From positions 864,001 through 928,000 of the forward strand of contig JBMNHS010000001.1 of NCBI GenBank assembly GCA_050950505.1: DNA of 64,000 bases, written 5' to 3'. The DNA is from Candidatus Methanomethylophilaceae archaeon. GTDB taxonomy: Archaea; Thermoplasmatota; Thermoplasmata; Methanomassiliicoccales; Methanomethylophilaceae. Positions 27,824 through 47,091 of the stretch are shown piece by piece. The notes under the pieces were generated by a model that searched no databases, was not told the DNA's origin, and saw only the letters and a list, made by a program, of their open reading frames with translations. How positions within the stretch are numbered: the first letter of the stretch is position 1; every line of letters begins with the position of its first letter. Both the position numbers and the translations under genes were made by a program.

Positions 27824-29110
27824 ATGGACGTAGGTCTCGTCGTAGCTTTGACAGCAATAATATTCGTTCTGTTGATTTTCTCAGCATATTTCTCAATGTC
27901 GGAAATGACATTCTCCACCGTCAACACAATCCGCTTAAAAAAATTGGATTCGGAAGGTGAAGTAAACGCCGCCAAGGCAATATCCCTCACCGAGGACTTT
28001 GATAAATTCCTGACTACGGTTTTAGTGGGAAACAATCTTGTCAACATCGCCGCATCAACCACCTGTGCCATGCTGTTCACGGAACAGCTGATGCCGGGCA
28101 ACCCGGGAATGGCAACACTTGCCGCCACGGTGATTATGACCGTAATCATACTCACATTCGGTGAGATACTGCCGAAAACCTTTGCCAAAAGAAATCCGGA
28201 ACATTACGCATTGAAACTGGTCAATTCTCTTTCTTTGTTCGTCACGATTCTGTATCCGATATCCTGGGCATTTGTCAAGATGAGCGCGATTCTCACAAAG
28301 AAGGAAGACGTGGATCCCGCACTCACCCTCACGGAAGATGAACTTGTGGTAATGATAAACGAAATCGAAGAGGAGGGAACTTTGGAAAAGGCGGAGAGCG
28401 ATCTGATCAAATCCGCAATCACTTTCGATGATACGAAACTCTCAGAAGTATACATTCCCAGAGTCGATGTGGTTGCCGTAAGCAAAGACGTGAACATGGA
28501 CGAACTGAAGGACATTTTCATTCACACCGGATATTCCAGAATCCCCGTTTACCATGAAAACATCGATCGCATTGTCGGTGTCGTGAATGCGAAAGACTTC
28601 TACCGAAGATATGTGGAAAACGACAATTTCAACATAATCGACATAATCCGTCAGGTGAAGTTCTTCGATGTATCCACGAACATCGACGAGGTACTCAGCG
28701 TGATGCAGAAAACCAAGGTTCACATGGCCGTGGTCCTGGACGCTTTCGGAGGGACGCTGGGTATCGTGACCCTTGAAGACCTCATAGAAGAACTCGTAGG
28801 GGAAATCTGGGATGAAAGCGATGATATCCTCCTCCCGGTGGTAAGGGAAGCCGACGGTTCGTACACCGTTCTCGGAGATGCCAACATCTTTGATGTAATG
28901 GACGATCTGGGTCTGGATTTCGATCCCGGCGAATATCAGGATTACAACGTAAGCGGATACATTCAGTATTCCACCGGAATGATTCCCAGAAGAGGAACCG
29001 TAGTGGAAACGGACAATCTGATCATCACAGTACTGTCTACCAAAGGACGCCGCGTGAAAGAAGCAAAGTTCGAAATCAAGCCCGCTCCGGAAGAACCGGA
29101 CGAGATTTGA
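27824..29110 (+). CDS. Hemolysin/CNNM family protein (DUF21-CBS-CorC)
   Basis: FSAYFSMSE, LVGNNLVNI, FGEILPK, YSRIPVY, GIVTLEDLIEELVGEIWDE. Confidence 0.9.
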   Translation: MDVGLVVALTAIIFVLLIFSAYFSMSEMTFSTVNTIRLKKLDSEGEVNAAKAISLTEDFDKFLTTVLVGNNLVNIAASTTCAMLFTEQLMPGNPGMATLAATVIMTVIILTFGEILPKTFAKRNPEHYALKLVNSLSLFVTILYPISWAFVKMSAILTKKEDVDPALTLTEDELVVMINEIEEEGTLEKAESDLIKSAITFDDTKLSEVYIPRVDVVAVSKDVNMDELKDIFIHTGYSRIPVYHENIDRIVGVVNAKDFYRRYVENDNFNIIDIIRQVKFFDVSTNIDEVLSVMQKTKVHMAVVLDAFGGTLGIVTLEDLIEELVGEIWDESDDILLPVVREADGSYTVLGDANIFDVMDDLGLDFDPGEYQDYNVSGYIQYSTGMIPRRGTVVETDNLIITVLSTKGRRVKEAKFEIKPAPEEPDEI

Positions 29111-29522
29111 GATATTCTTTCAGCACATCAATAGCCAGCTCTCTTTTTGCGGGATAAGATGCGACTTTACAGATAAATGATACGACGTCCCCTCCGGACC
29201 CTATGACATACTCACCGGACATCGCCTTTTGTTTGTCCAATCTGAAAAAGAAGCTGCAGTCTTCATCGATCCGTTCTTCTATTTCGTCAAGAATCCATTC
29301 AATGACATCCTTTCCGAGTCTGTCGAACAATCCGTCCATGTCCTTTCTCTTGGTGAGTTCGGCTTCAAGAATCAAAGTTCTGTTCCCCATTTCCCCTTCG
29401 GCGACATCAACTTCGTATTCATCGGTGCCAATCAGATTTTCAAACATTTCCGTAACACGGTCTTCGTCTTCTGTGGAGTAAATCATCACTCTGGATTTTA
29501 TCCATCTGAACGCAGGTTTCAT
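29076..29522 (-). CDS. Archaeal RNA-binding protein (COG1325-like)
   Basis: YSTEDEDRV, EGEMGN, FFRLDKQ, KVASYPAKRE. Confidence 0.75.
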   Translation of the reverse strand: MKPAFRWIKSRVMIYSTEDEDRVTEMFENLIGTDEYEVDVAEGEMGNRTLILEAELTKRKDMDGLFDRLGKDVIEWILDEIEERIDEDCSFFFRLDKQKAMSGEYVIGSGGDVVSFICKVASYPAKRELAIDVLKEYLKSRPVLPERA

Positions 29523-30001
29523 TCTTCGGTCTCCGTCTTGTTTTTATTTACGGCTTTGGGTAGAACCGATGCGAGCTCTTCCGCTCTTTCGGAAGATACA
29601 GCGACAACGGTGTTCTTTGTTCTGAACAGAACTCCGTCCACGCATCCGGTGCAGTTGTAATATCTGTATTTGTAATCTCTGAAACTTATTCCGGCATAAT
29701 TTCTGAGTTCGTTCATGACTCCGTAACGGGTGTCCAAAATCTTCTCGATACGGTAACTGCGGACTTTGTAGTATTTTATTACGACTTTGTCCTCATACAC
29801 ATCGGTTTTCAGTACGAACTTACGGAAGAGCACAAACAAAAATAAGGTAATAACAGTGAATACAACAAAAAGCCACCACTCCGTCCATCCGAGAGCCGCG
29901 CTCACAAGGATGAAAATTGTCGTAGGCACAAGTATAGCCATTGTGGCTTTTTCGACTATCGGAGGCACCACGCGAATTCTTTCGCTGAATACGGGTTCCA
30001 T
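29519..30001 (-). CDS. Hypothetical membrane protein (2 TM + soluble domain)
   Basis: Two N-terminal TM helices; stop overlaps the next start (ATGA). Confidence 0.7.
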   Translation of the reverse strand: MEPVFSERIRVVPPIVEKATMAILVPTTIFILVSAALGWTEWWLFVVFTVITLFLFVLFRKFVLKTDVYEDKVVIKYYKVRSYRIEKILDTRYGVMNELRNYAGISFRDYKYRYYNCTGCVDGVLFRTKNTVVAVSSERAEELASVLPKAVNKNKTETEE

Positions 30002-30106
30002 ATTCCCCCATAGGGAGTCGGAGATATTTATTTTCCGTATAATAGGTTCGTCTGGCTGACGGAATGGGAATGTTTATATCATACTTCTTTATTGGTAATT
30101 CTCATC

Positions 30107-30183
30107 GGGCCCATAGCTTAGCCTGGTGGAGCGTCCGGCTGATAACCGGAAGGTCATGTGTTCGAATCACATTGGGCCCACCA
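30107..30183 (+). tRNA. tRNA-Ile(GAT), CCA encoded
   Basis: GGGCCCATAGCTTAGCCTGGTGGAGCGTCCGGCTGATAACCGGAAGGTCATGTGTTCGAATCACATTGGGCCCACCA; cloverleaf, anticodon GAT. Confidence 0.97.
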
Positions 30184-30336
30184 TAACCAAACCCCTTGAT
30201 GAAGATCCGCTCCGATTTTCGTTTTTCCTTTCAATCCGTTCATAATATCTCTTTTGATTCATTCGTATTTTTATTTTGCGGGTCAATGGATGCAACTTAG
30301 AAAGTTATTTATACTTTATACCTCGTAATATCTATT

Positions 30337-30556
30337 ACACGCGCAGAGGTCGCAGAATCGGTAGAACGGTCAAATGTCTCGCAAGACCTGTGTTCGAAGA
30401 TTCAGTGCCCTATACATCGTGAGACGGATAGGAACCGTCGCCTGAACGATACGAAGATTCCCTACTGGAATCATATAATGATTCGGGCCCTCCGGTATTC
30501 CTGATACAGAACAACAAGAGGGTGTATGCAGAATCGTTGTACGGCTCTGCGCGTGT
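30337..30556 (+). ncRNA. Candidate ~220-nt structured non-coding RNA of unknown family
   Basis: 12-bp terminal stem ACACGCGCAGAG/CTCTGCGCGTGT, several internal stems, BRE/TATA-like element about 25 nt upstream, T-rich tract downstream, no ORF. Confidence 0.6.
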
Positions 30557-30710
30557 TGTCGGATTGCTTATTTGAATTTTTATGATTTTATAATGTATCG
30601 AAACAGAGCAAGCTCGATGTTTGAGGGTATTGTCATTTCAACAAAGTAAAAAAAATCAAAGACCTCTTGCTTCGCGTGACGCAAAGCAAGAAGTCTCCAT
30701 AAGTTGTTTT

Positions 30711-32495
30711 TCAATCAGACGGTCCGTTCCAATCTTTCGGTCCGTATTCATCAAGATACTGGCCGTGTGTGGCCGGGGCCCATACGGTAGTGGTCAGATC
30801 GATGTGTCCGTAAGCCAATCCGGCATACAGCGGACCCGCGGTAACCTGTCGGGTCTCAACCGTGTATCCCAGTTCTTCCAGCAAATGCTTCAGCACGTTC
30901 GTGGATCCCACGGCACAGGACCAATCAACAAGACCGAGAACTATATTTCCGCGACTCTCGCCGACATTCAAATCCTTCAGCCATTTTTCTTTGATATCCT
31001 CATTTTCCGTCAGCCACATCAAAGCAGATTCAGAGATGTCCGATCCGTCTTTCCGATCTTCGATAAACTCCAGAAGTCCGTTGAACTCATCGACGGAATA
31101 CGAATATCTGCTCATCAACAAAGCAAGATCCGCATCATTTTTCAATAATCCGTTCCTGGCCCAGGACTGTATGGATTCGGCTTCTCCGTAAACCCCCAAA
31201 TCATCTTCCAGATAGATCATTTCATATTTTGATGCGGCCCAATGGGGATCCCACAAAGTCACAACGATGTATTCGTTGTTCTCATAAGCCGCTTTAAGGC
31301 TGGTAAGCATTCCCGCTTCCGAACTCGATTGAAGTTCAAAATTCAAACCATAATCTTCTATGGCCTGTTCGGTCATGTTCATGATGCCCGCTCCGGAATC
31401 GATACCGATAATTTTTCCTTTGAAAGCATCGAAGTGAGTGTCAAGATCGGAAACGGTTCTCACTCCGAGCATGTCGTACGTATACGTGGTAACGGCCAAA
31501 CCCAGTTTGGCACCGTTATCGAGAACATCGCCCGCAAATTCTATGTCTTCCATCTTGTCTTCATCGACAAAGAAAAACGCGCCGGCGCTGACCACAAGAA
31601 ATACAGCAAGTACGCCGGTGCCGATTTTTAAGGTTCTCATTGTATCCTTTTTGCTTCTTGACACAAAAACTTCAGGTTCCGTTTTGGTAAACGATTGTGT
31701 GAGTCTGTCCAGAGTCATCGCTATCAATACCACGGCAAGACCCGCTTCGAATCCCACGGCGATATCGATCCGGTTCAATGCGTACACAATATCTCCGCCG
31801 AGTCCGCCTCCGCCGATCATGGCGGCGATGACAACCATCGACAATGAGAGCATGATGCATTGGTTGATTCCGGTCATTATTGACGGCATTGCGATGGGAA
31901 GCTGAACTTTGGTAAGTTTGTCCCATTTCGTGGAACCGAAGGCATCGGCCACCTCGTTCATCTCTTCGGGAACCTGACGGATTCCCAGGTTGGTCAGCCT
32001 CACTACGGGAGGCATTGCGAAAATGACAGTTGCGATGACTCCCGGCACGGCACCCAATCCGAAGAAGATTATGGCCGGTATAAGGTAAACGAAAGCGGGC
32101 ATCGTCTGCATAAAGTCCATGACGGCTTTGATTACGGTATTCGAACTCTCGCTGTTGGATGCCCAGATTCCCAGCGGAATCGCAATGGCAACCGCCACCA
32201 GAGTCGACACGAGAACCATCGTGAGGGTATCAATGGAACTCTCCCAGTACCCCATGTAGTTTATGACGGCGAAGGCAAGACCGATCAACAACGGCAACAC
32301 GAGCCGTTTGGTAATCAGAATTGAAATGAAAATAAGCAGTATTATGAAAACCAGCGGACCGGGATAACTCAGGATTCCTCCCACCATGTTGATGAGGCCG
32401 TCCAGAAATCTGCTCAGAAGACTCAAAAGCCCGCCGAAATAAACTTCGATAAAATCCACAACGGTTATGGCCGCTTCGCCGACGACGGAAGTCAT
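30711..32495 (-). CDS. Glycine betaine/proline ABC transporter permease fused to substrate-binding domain (OpuABC/ProWX)
   Basis: MDFMQTMPAFVYLIP, RLTNLGIRQVP, GINQCIMLSLSMVVIA, then GIDSGAGIM, WDPHW. Confidence 0.92.
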   Translation of the reverse strand: MTSVVGEAAITVVDFIEVYFGGLLSLLSRFLDGLINMVGGILSYPGPLVFIILLIFISILITKRLVLPLLIGLAFAVINYMGYWESSIDTLTMVLVSTLVAVAIAIPLGIWASNSESSNTVIKAVMDFMQTMPAFVYLIPAIIFFGLGAVPGVIATVIFAMPPVVRLTNLGIRQVPEEMNEVADAFGSTKWDKLTKVQLPIAMPSIMTGINQCIMLSLSMVVIAAMIGGGGLGGDIVYALNRIDIAVGFEAGLAVVLIAMTLDRLTQSFTKTEPEVFVSRSKKDTMRTLKIGTGVLAVFLVVSAGAFFFVDEDKMEDIEFAGDVLDNGAKLGLAVTTYTYDMLGVRTVSDLDTHFDAFKGKIIGIDSGAGIMNMTEQAIEDYGLNFELQSSSEAGMLTSLKAAYENNEYIVVTLWDPHWAASKYEMIYLEDDLGVYGEAESIQSWARNGLLKNDADLALLMSRYSYSVDEFNGLLEFIEDRKDGSDISESALMWLTENEDIKEKWLKDLNVGESRGNIVLGLVDWSCAVGSTNVLKHLLEELGYTVETRQVTAGPLYAGLAYGHIDLTTTVWAPATHGQYLDEYGPKDWNGPSD

Positions 32496-47015: not shown

Positions 47016-47091
47016 TGGTGGGCCCGCCCGGATTTGAACCGGAGTCAATAACTCCCGAAGCTACTAGTATACCAAGCTAACCCACGGGCCC
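47016..47091 (-). tRNA. tRNA-Pro(CGG), CCA encoded
   Basis: Reverse complement GGGCCCGTGGGTTAGCTTGGTATACTAGTAGCTTCGGGAGTTATTGACTCCGGTTCAAATCCGGGCGGGCCCACCA. Confidence 0.96.

Follow-up and report, generated by a model that had tools for sequence, protein, structure and literature searches.

A previously undescribed family of structured noncoding RNAs in two genera of Methanomethylophilaceae

What is encoded by the ~220 nucleotides (nt) lying between a tRNA-Ile gene and a convergent transporter gene in the 64-kb stretch of archaeal DNA studied here (the window, whose coordinates are used below for its genes)? A first-pass annotation had proposed a stand-alone archaeal noncoding RNA (ncRNA) of unknown class, and every sequence string that it named is present at the coordinates quoted in what follows. 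The lack of an Rfam match, a conserved promoter, covarying homologs, discrete RNA contigs from three studies and the Methanomassiliicoccales titles of carrier assemblies all agree with that proposal. We conclude that a stable structured ncRNA of ~220 nt is encoded here by a stand-alone gene, one of two paralogs in its genome (G000; 1.33 Mb, 99.6% complete), and consider it probable that this RNA acts in trans, most likely as the scaffold of a ribonucleoprotein (RNP). The gene was matched by two covariance models, built from 5 (R1) and 26 (R2) sequences of the family, which were aligned with L-INS-i:

30337-30558, + strand: ncRNA gene, a-type paralog; covariance-model match of 178 bits (R1) and 88.7 bits (R2)

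An RNA family without an Rfam counterpart

The novelty of this RNA withstood a search of Rfam. At gathering thresholds, Rfam 15 returns two tRNAs and nothing else from the whole window; at E ≤ 10, region 30190-30710 gives seven junk matches that score 14-18 bits where 36-112 would be required. The best of them reaches 18.2 bits (cut-off, 88), and the single one that touches the 3' end of the RNA, snoR64a, 15.6 bits (cut-off, 45). Similarly, 14 loci of the family searched against Rfam at E ≤ 1 yield four tRNAs and two junk matches, none of which falls on the RNA. The full-length RNase P RNA (C1:804398-804688, 205.6 bits) and signal recognition particle (SRP) RNA (C1:1093142-1093447, 157.1 bits) of the same genome are separate from the gene, in line with the earlier statement that it is neither of these nor a 5S RNA. 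A small protein gene is ruled out as well, and the reported absence of an open reading frame thus extends to the family: no reading frame is conserved among 28 members, whose longest stop-free stretches (31-83 codons) lie in differing frames and have no sequence in common. A literature search at the level of listings and abstracts, on ncRNAs of Methanomassiliicoccales and on the discovery of archaeal structured ncRNAs, yielded no such RNA and no Methanomassiliicoccales ncRNA beyond Rfam annotations; the ncRNA passages of PMC4153887 give an Rfam-based annotation (group II intron, SRP, RNase P). The family of the window RNA is previously undescribed and has no Rfam counterpart.

Homologs of the RNA are conserved and covary in Methanomassiliicoccales. 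By BLAST, a second site in the own genome, as well as sites in congeners, matches the promoter plus the first 20 nt; with a 301-nt stretch as query, BLAST reached only four of 41 genomes of relatives. The family becomes visible only with covariance models. R1 detected it in 14 of 16 genomes of the own genus (g1), which have one to three copies, in some cases as tandem arrangements with a spacing of 480-850 nt, and in 8 of 151 genomes of the order (six of seven congeners plus the own genome, the one genome in this set from the sister genus, g9, and none from 32 other genera). Within the family Methanomethylophilaceae, R2 found it in 13 of the 15 other genomes of the own genus and in all four of the sister genus, with no real match in 131 genomes from 17 other genera: the one match there (in G103; 16.7 bits, E = 0.012) was dropped because it sits in a protein-coding frame, that of a protein which, by eye, we take to be Hsp90-like. 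Laxer filters gave no match in five further genomes (0/5).

A two-block pattern drawn from the alignment was also scanned over species genomes, viral contigs and metagenome contigs. Among 185,579 species genomes (one each) it retrieved 24 stretches, 19 of which are real (147-225 bits with R2) and come from metagenome-assembled genomes titled Methanomassiliicoccales, Methanomassiliicoccaceae, Methanomethylophilaceae or Thermoplasmatales; one is 'Methanomassiliicoccales archaeon RumEn M2', of the sister genus (L065, with the same sequence as L040). The five remaining stretches are bacterial and, scoring at most 7.9 bits with R2, were treated as chance. Viral contigs gave no match, and metagenome contigs gave 19 stretches, 12 of them real and seven without a model score, which were treated as chance. 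As found, the family is restricted to two genera of Methanomethylophilaceae, with one to three copies per genome, and the carriers apparently form a single clade.

The own genome contains exactly two copies by nhmmer (E = 1e-69 and 7e-62; next match, E = 0.75), which are ~60% alike. The second is the following:

C1:1088918-1089150 of G000 (L025:1501-1733): b-type paralog, between corA and convergent nrdD, with the kink-turn (K-turn) signature described below

Every genome that carries an a-type gene plus a second copy holds such a b-type copy with the signature. The ortholog in G007 is 90% identical and split over two contig ends; the RNA is almost unchanged there and the flanks diverge. In that assembly the break falls inside the gene (L003 on contig C85, L006 on contig C44, the ends overlapping by ~22 nt), and it may stem from strain variation or from high-coverage repeats of RNA genes. 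Tandem duplicates occur at L011 (G015), L027 (G008), L017 (G009) and L018 (G002), each copy 480-850 nt from the other and with its own promoter; the upstream element of the second tandem copy in G008 is degenerate.

Fold, promoter and accumulation of the RNA

The + strand of the gene folds with a minimum free energy (MFE) of -78 kcal/mol, compared to a mean of -62.2 (sd 4.3) for shuffled sequences (z = -3.68; 0 of 200 fold as well); the z-score of the - strand is -3.23. G-U pairs are frequent (e.g. 20 of 26 sequences at columns 184/273) and would be C-A on the other strand, which together with the side of the promoter fixes the + strand. The fold was tested with the RNAalifold structure of the 26-sequence alignment A4, which comprises 50 pairs in 10 helices. 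Paired cells amount to 87.8%, against 31-48% when the partners are slid by one to three columns; 31 of the 50 pairs have changed on both sides, against 13-18; and 134 cells carry two-sided changes, against 14-39. None of 500 shuffles reaches any of these covariation measures, a type of figure that kinship inflates, the slid controls, also clearly lower, being the fairer comparison. The fold is supported by covariation. Its elements, all on the + strand, are as follows:

30337-30348 with 30545-30556: P1 (helix 1), 12 pairs, 97.4% of cells paired, five pairs changed on both sides, outer 7 base pairs (bp) nearly invariant
30349-30354: J1/2, GTCGCA, with invariant U, G and A and two nearly invariant C positions (column counts)
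30352-30353 with 30407-30408: 2-bp extension of P2 (helix 2), GC with GC
30355-30403: P2 hairpin, interrupted by an asymmetric internal loop of GGTA (30360-30363) and GAA (30396-30398); four of five P2a pairs changed on both sides
30404-30415: J2/3, with a near-invariant GCCC
30409-30410 with 30543-30544: P1b (helix 4), CC with GG, 2 bp
30416-30450: P3 (helix 5 of the family), ATCGT (30416-30420)/ACGAT (30446-30450) enclosing GACGG/CCGTC (30423-30427/30435-30439), present in the MFE structure; four of eight pairs changed on both sides
30451-30472: J3/4 ACGAA and P4 hairpin GATTCC-CTACT-GGAATC (helix 6), stem 30456-30461 with 30467-30472
30474-30541: P5 long arm (helices 7-10), TATAATGATTC (30474-30484)/GAATCGTTGTA (30531-30541) enclosing CCCTC/GAGGG (30488-30492/30518-30522)

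In this fold, P2 branches off the 12-bp clamp that joins the ends; it is followed by a four-way junction in which P3, P4 and P5 meet and which is closed by the fourth helix, P1b. The strands joining the helices of this junction are the most conserved nucleotides of the RNA, and the peripheral helices differ among members in both sequence and length. In the G007 ortholog, the outer P5 has substitutions that mostly keep pairing and include one two-sided change from A-U to G-C; a variant RNA contig with C>T at 30439 in P3 turns a G-C pair into G-U.

This family fold sorts the helices that had been read from the single sequence. The 12-bp closing stem is kept in the family with compensatory changes across 26 relatives; the hairpin GAATC-GGTA-GAAC...GTTC-GAA-GATTC (30355-30403) reappears as P2, likewise with compensatory changes, and GATTCC/GGAATC and CCCTC/GAGGG correspond to the family-supported P4 and inner P5, respectively. 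Two other stems give way: CCTAT/ATAGG (30409-30413/30428-30432) competes with P3, its CC being the near-invariant strand of P1b, and the halves of AACGAT/ATCGTT (30445-30450/30533-30538) have other conserved partners, namely those of ATCGT/ACGAT in P3 and of TATAATGATTC/GAATCGTTGTA in P5. The loop-E-like loop is retained loosely: its 3' GAA is present in most members, and its 5' strand varies (AACUA, AACAA, GAAUA, GGUA). By sequence resemblance, the P2 internal loop is loop-E/S-turn-like.

A kissing contact between GTCTCGC (30376-30382) and GTGAGAC (30419-30425) had also been suggested. It is not conserved in the family and clashes with the family fold: because GTGAGAC spans two family-supported stems, contact and fold are mutually exclusive. 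As aligned, P2-P3 complementarity is no better than in shuffles for 25 of the 26 members (one p = 0.04), the aligned P3 columns cutting the GTGAGAC of the window copy so that its row leaves out the proposed 7-bp pair, which was compared by eye; complementary 7-nt runs in other members have p = 0.26-0.71. A search of the 26 members for P2-P3, P2-P5 and P3-P5 kissing contacts gave nothing consistent. These results bear on the resemblance to a lysine riboswitch noted earlier, i.e. on the idea that the RNA is a diverged member of that class. The resemblance comprises a multi-helix junction, the loop-E-like GGUA/GAA in P2 and, in the window copy, the 7-bp P2/P3 complementarity, but it is a generic one: Rfam, which includes the lysine family, gives no match to it at E ≤ 10, no same-strand gene follows, the kissing complementarity behaves as just described and the putative K-turn lies at P3/P4, not at P2. 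The chance that the RNA is a lysine riboswitch is therefore close to nil.

A promoter of its own had been claimed for the RNA, and the BRE/TATA-like string on which the claim was based (BRE, transcription factor B recognition element) is conserved in the family. The elements flanking the gene are the following:

30287-30297, + strand: upstream promoter element TGGATGCAACT, directly upstream of BRE/TATA and aligned in 27 of 28 family genes
30300-30314, + strand: BRE/TATA-like core GAAAGTTATTTATAC, ~25 nt before 30337 (~26 nt for the TATA center), family-conserved; role assigned from position and composition
30568-30583, + strand: T-rich runs (TTATTT, ATTTTTAT) after the gene, candidate archaeal terminator

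When 28 genes are aligned over the 70 nt preceding them, three conserved parts stand out: (i) the TGGATGtAACT element, in 27 of them; (ii) an A/T-rich BRE/TATA block; and (iii) a TA that precedes the first G/A of the RNA by ~10 nt. Over its full 1.33 Mb, the genome has just two instances of the motif TGGAT[GA][CT]AACT, each ahead of a gene of the family. We infer that the RNA would be transcribed from a private promoter made of this family-specific upstream element plus BRE/TATA.

Part of a 401-nt query is present in 16 runs recorded as RNA; these belong to 10 studies and derive from digesters, bioreactors, fermentations and wastewater. The contigs of four runs, X1 to X4, were mapped on 29800-31200, three of them as follows:

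30349-30553: cover of X2, contig of 205 nt, depth 38
30345-30562: cover of X3, contig of 218 nt, depth 21
30349-30545: cover of X4, contig of 198 nt, depth 4.2

In these three runs, each from a different study, neither the tRNA gene nor either neighboring gene is covered, and the contigs end at 30545-30562, ahead of the T-rich runs. Three metatranscriptome contigs of 198-218 nt that cover the RNA alone are good evidence for the accumulation of the window RNA as a discrete molecule close to its predicted size. The RNA contigs display neither circular nor spliced joints, parts without cover being no evidence of silence. The X1 contig (30345-31004) runs from the RNA into the neighboring gene; it has an adapter-like loose end at 30345, and its library is labelled FAIRE-seq. 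X2 contains a second contig (record 4) that matches 30393-30523 with 12 differences and unrelated-looking flanks, a related strain's version in the same sample.

Genomic context and dispensability

The genes around the RNA and the only other RNA gene of the window are these:

30107-30183, + strand: tRNA-Ile(GAU), upstream neighbor of the ncRNA gene
30711-32495, - strand: convergent gene with OpuAC and permease domains, glycine-betaine-type ABC transporter (opuA-type), 3' neighbor
30657-30699: G+C-rich hairpin directly after the stop of the convergent transporter gene, with an A-run before it on the + strand
29076-29522, - strand: PF01877 ('RNA binding') protein, 148 aa, two genes upstream of the tRNA/ncRNA pair and divergent
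47016-47091, - strand: tRNA-Pro(CGG), apart from tRNA-Ile the sole RNA gene found by Rfam or ARAGORN in the window

The adjoining tRNA-Ile and the convergent orientation of the next gene are thus as first described. The hairpin at 30657-30699, for which Rfam yields junk miRNA matches only, looks like the terminator of the transporter gene and may also halt read-through out of the ncRNA gene. The corresponding open reading frames at a c-type locus have no Pfam match, and we claim no link between the PF01877 protein and the RNA. Across the family, the neighbors vary with the type of locus:

a-type (window): opuA-type transporter
a-type (G008) and c-type: opuA-type transporter, with a zinc-ribbon gene between
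b-type: between corA (same strand) and convergent nrdD
d-type: between chorismate synthase and a GHMP kinase gene
copy of the sister genus: between a nitrogenase-like gene and an ACT-domain gene

With such varied neighbors, synteny gives no lead to function. In the loci examined for each synteny type, no same-strand gene lies 3' of the RNA, which makes promoter plus RNA, not an untranslated region (UTR), the conserved unit.

At the loci examined, a convergent gene turns its 3' end toward the RNA gene, and the X1 contig continues into the neighbor; on these grounds, the RNA might be a cis antisense or 3'-end element controlling the convergent gene (here opuA-type) by read-through or by sharing a terminator. 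Against this idea, the convergent neighbor changes from locus to locus (opuA or zinc-ribbon, nrdD, GHMP kinase, ACT-domain protein), it is the folded RNA rather than complementarity to neighbors that is conserved, and the contigs of the three other studies stop at the end of the RNA. We therefore give cis control only a slim chance.

One congener lacks the gene. Neither R1 nor R2 has a match in G001, a genome of the own genus that is 92% complete in 30 contigs; there, the ends of corA and nrdD are 26 nt apart, compared to ~515 nt, holding the b-type gene, in the own genome. The RNA gene is thus probably accessory. As nrdD is present in G001, nrdD and the RNA are not linked; with the NrdD encoded beside the b copy (L025:1747-3219) as query, no counterpart was retrieved from complete genomes of five further genera of the family (G017, G020, G021, G059 and G052). 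A search of G001 for a close opuA homolog found none (best, 25% identity). The clean presence or absence in the corA/nrdD spacer, together with the occurrence at various loci and in tandem, and with ends that could be terminal inverted repeats, is what would be expected if the 12-bp repeat were not an RNA helix but the mark of a miniature inverted-repeat transposable element or another mobile-element relic. Such an origin is highly improbable, however, since (i) the genome holds only two copies, ~60% alike; (ii) the interior helices are kept by compensatory changes; (iii) a conserved promoter lies outside the repeats; (iv) the repeat ends bound the RNA that accumulates; and (v) viral contigs contain no match.

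K-turn signature and possible roles of the RNA

In 19 of the 26 aligned members, the strand between P3 and P4 consists of 3 nt, then G-A, then U or A, and the strand after P4 reads U-G-A-A. This makes a signature composed of a 3-nt bulge, tandem G.A/A.G pairs and a next pair that is U.U or A-U, with P5 starting on the non-bulged strand; it fits the definitions of the kink turn and the k-junction in PMC5061560 and PMC10573300. All c-type (7/7) and d-type (6/6) members and six of eight b-type members have it, compared to none of the five a-type ones. In the latter, which include the window RNA, U-C replaces G-A on the non-bulged strand, so that the two G.A pairs become Watson-Crick pairs, and the P4 hairpin is almost invariant. 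According to PMC4382518, the affinity of L7Ae for k-turns is in the pM range, and the k-turns of archaeal box C/D RNAs depend on L7Ae for folding. Genes of the L7Ae family are found in 61 of 61 genomes of the family Methanomethylophilaceae, with two copies in 60 of them. Going by its sequence, the putative K-turn of most paralogs is likely to be an L7Ae binding site.

These features can be accommodated if the RNA acts in trans as a folded molecule, most likely as an RNP scaffold. L7Ae would be bound at the P3-P4 kink turn of most paralogs, with P5 on the non-bulged strand in a k-junction-like arrangement, and a further partner, either a protein or a small ligand, would then be bound by the conserved core of the junction. 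The window copy, in which the G.A pairs are swapped for Watson-Crick pairs and the almost invariant P4 is kept, would be a diverged, sub-functionalised paralog.

Several points weigh against the RNP scaffold. The conserved junction strands would equally fit a ligand pocket or a catalytic core. The window copy and the four other a-type members have no K-turn signature, and two b-type members deviate from it. The carriers possess no extra L7Ae paralog, 60 of 61 genomes having two copies and one non-carrier a single one. The putative K-turn site lies within a four-way junction, whereas the k-junctions described are simple three-way ones, and its kinking is predicted. Absence from G001 argues against a housekeeping role. 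As to accumulation and fold, the contigs are silent on transcript ends, strand and level, the X1 contig may represent library DNA or read-through, and the covariation comes from few lineages in two genera.

A more elaborate possibility, which we consider rather unlikely, is that of the first 'ornate' orphan RNA class in archaea, clade-specific and highly expressed, in which the invariant four-way core would be catalytic or ligand-binding (a new ribozyme or trans-acting aptamer) and the RNA would be assembled with L7Ae: expression would be turned on through TGGATGYAACT by a transcription factor dedicated to this element, the paralogs would have diverged in specificity, and the window copy would have traded its K-turn for the invariant hairpin. 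If the junction instead formed a pocket for a small molecule or ion, the RNA could be a ligand-sensing regulator, a riboswitch-like aptamer working in trans or as a sponge, the ligand altering what the RNA sequesters. Joining strands that are more conserved than the peripheral helices are typical of aptamers, paralogs with differing cores (a versus b/c/d) recall riboswitch variants, and K-turns serve as architectural elements in several riboswitch classes (PMC4316175). Yet the loci examined show no same-strand gene downstream and have differing neighbors (opuA, nrdD, GHMP kinase, ACT-domain protein), and there is no expression platform, no Rfam riboswitch match and no ligand candidate suggested by context, which leaves the aptamer unlikely. 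The same core, purine-rich and invariant (GAAGA, UGAA, ACAG and UAAGG in most members) and held by variable helices, might also be that of a ribozyme that processes itself or acts on some other RNA, and one portion of this core recalls the tandem G.A region next to hammerhead stem II. However, Rfam gives no ribozyme match, the contigs span the whole RNA without joints or internal ends, four helices meet at the junction, and the residues that would form the hammerhead uridine turn are paired in P3. Catalysis is thus very unlikely, and the RNP scaffold is the role that we favor.

Comparison with known systems

Time and again, large structured RNAs with conserved cores have revealed new biochemistry, be it as ribozymes, as riboswitches or as scaffolds of RNPs, and, to our knowledge, almost all orphan classes of such RNAs are bacterial. 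The present family is archaeal, appears as discrete contigs in digester and fermenter metatranscriptomes, and comes with built-in controls: paralogs with and without the K-turn, a congener without the gene, and a private promoter element that would point to a dedicated regulator. It offers a concrete entry to RNA-based regulation or catalysis in Methanomassiliicoccales, the methanogens of guts, rumen and digesters, its narrow distribution over two genera limiting the immediate reach of the finding.

Among known RNAs, the lysine riboswitch (Rfam RF00168) also has a junction of several helices, as well as a P2 with a loop-E-like loop close to its base, but the family has no match to its model, is not a 5' UTR, has no conserved P2-P3 contact and differs in its core sequences. 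Y RNAs are similar in that their paired ends form a sequence-conserved terminal stem around variable structure and in that they occur as multiple paralogs. A Y RNA was rejected: TROVE/Ro60 (PF05731) was not found in the own genome, control genomes being positive, and there is no Rfam Y RNA match.

The archaeal RNAs bound by L7Ae (RNase P RNA, box C/D and H/ACA RNAs) resemble the family in being abundant, stand-alone and transcribed from promoters of their own, and most members of the family carry a K-turn signature, predicted to be a site of the kind that L7Ae binds (PMC4245976 and PMC4382518). None of them is homologous to the family, whose two-junction fold (220-270 nt) differs from theirs. 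A box C/D or H/ACA sRNA was considered and rejected, no Rfam model reaching its threshold (the best being snoR64a, 15.6 versus 45 bits, and SNORD43, 14.3 versus 45 bits, both largely outside the RNA); by eye, and against the known consensus, neither guide regions nor boxes arranged as in C/D or ACA RNAs were apparent. The k-junction of TPP riboswitches, as defined in PMC10573300, is matched by the family in its putative K-turn, whose non-bulged strand bears an additional helix, P5. The family differs in that a fourth helix, P1b, enters the junction, that the window copy is devoid of the motif, and that the motif is known here from sequence.

Finally, the family is reminiscent of the raiA motif, OLE, ROOL and GOLLD, which were likewise found by conservation and covariation, have conserved junction nucleotides, are abundant in transcriptomes and have no known function; OLE, moreover, uses a K-turn for a protein partner (PMC9723947). 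Compared to these RNAs, the family is archaeal, is confined to two genera, comprises two to three diverged paralogs with a dedicated upstream element, has no Rfam match and is smaller than OLE, ROOL and GOLLD.

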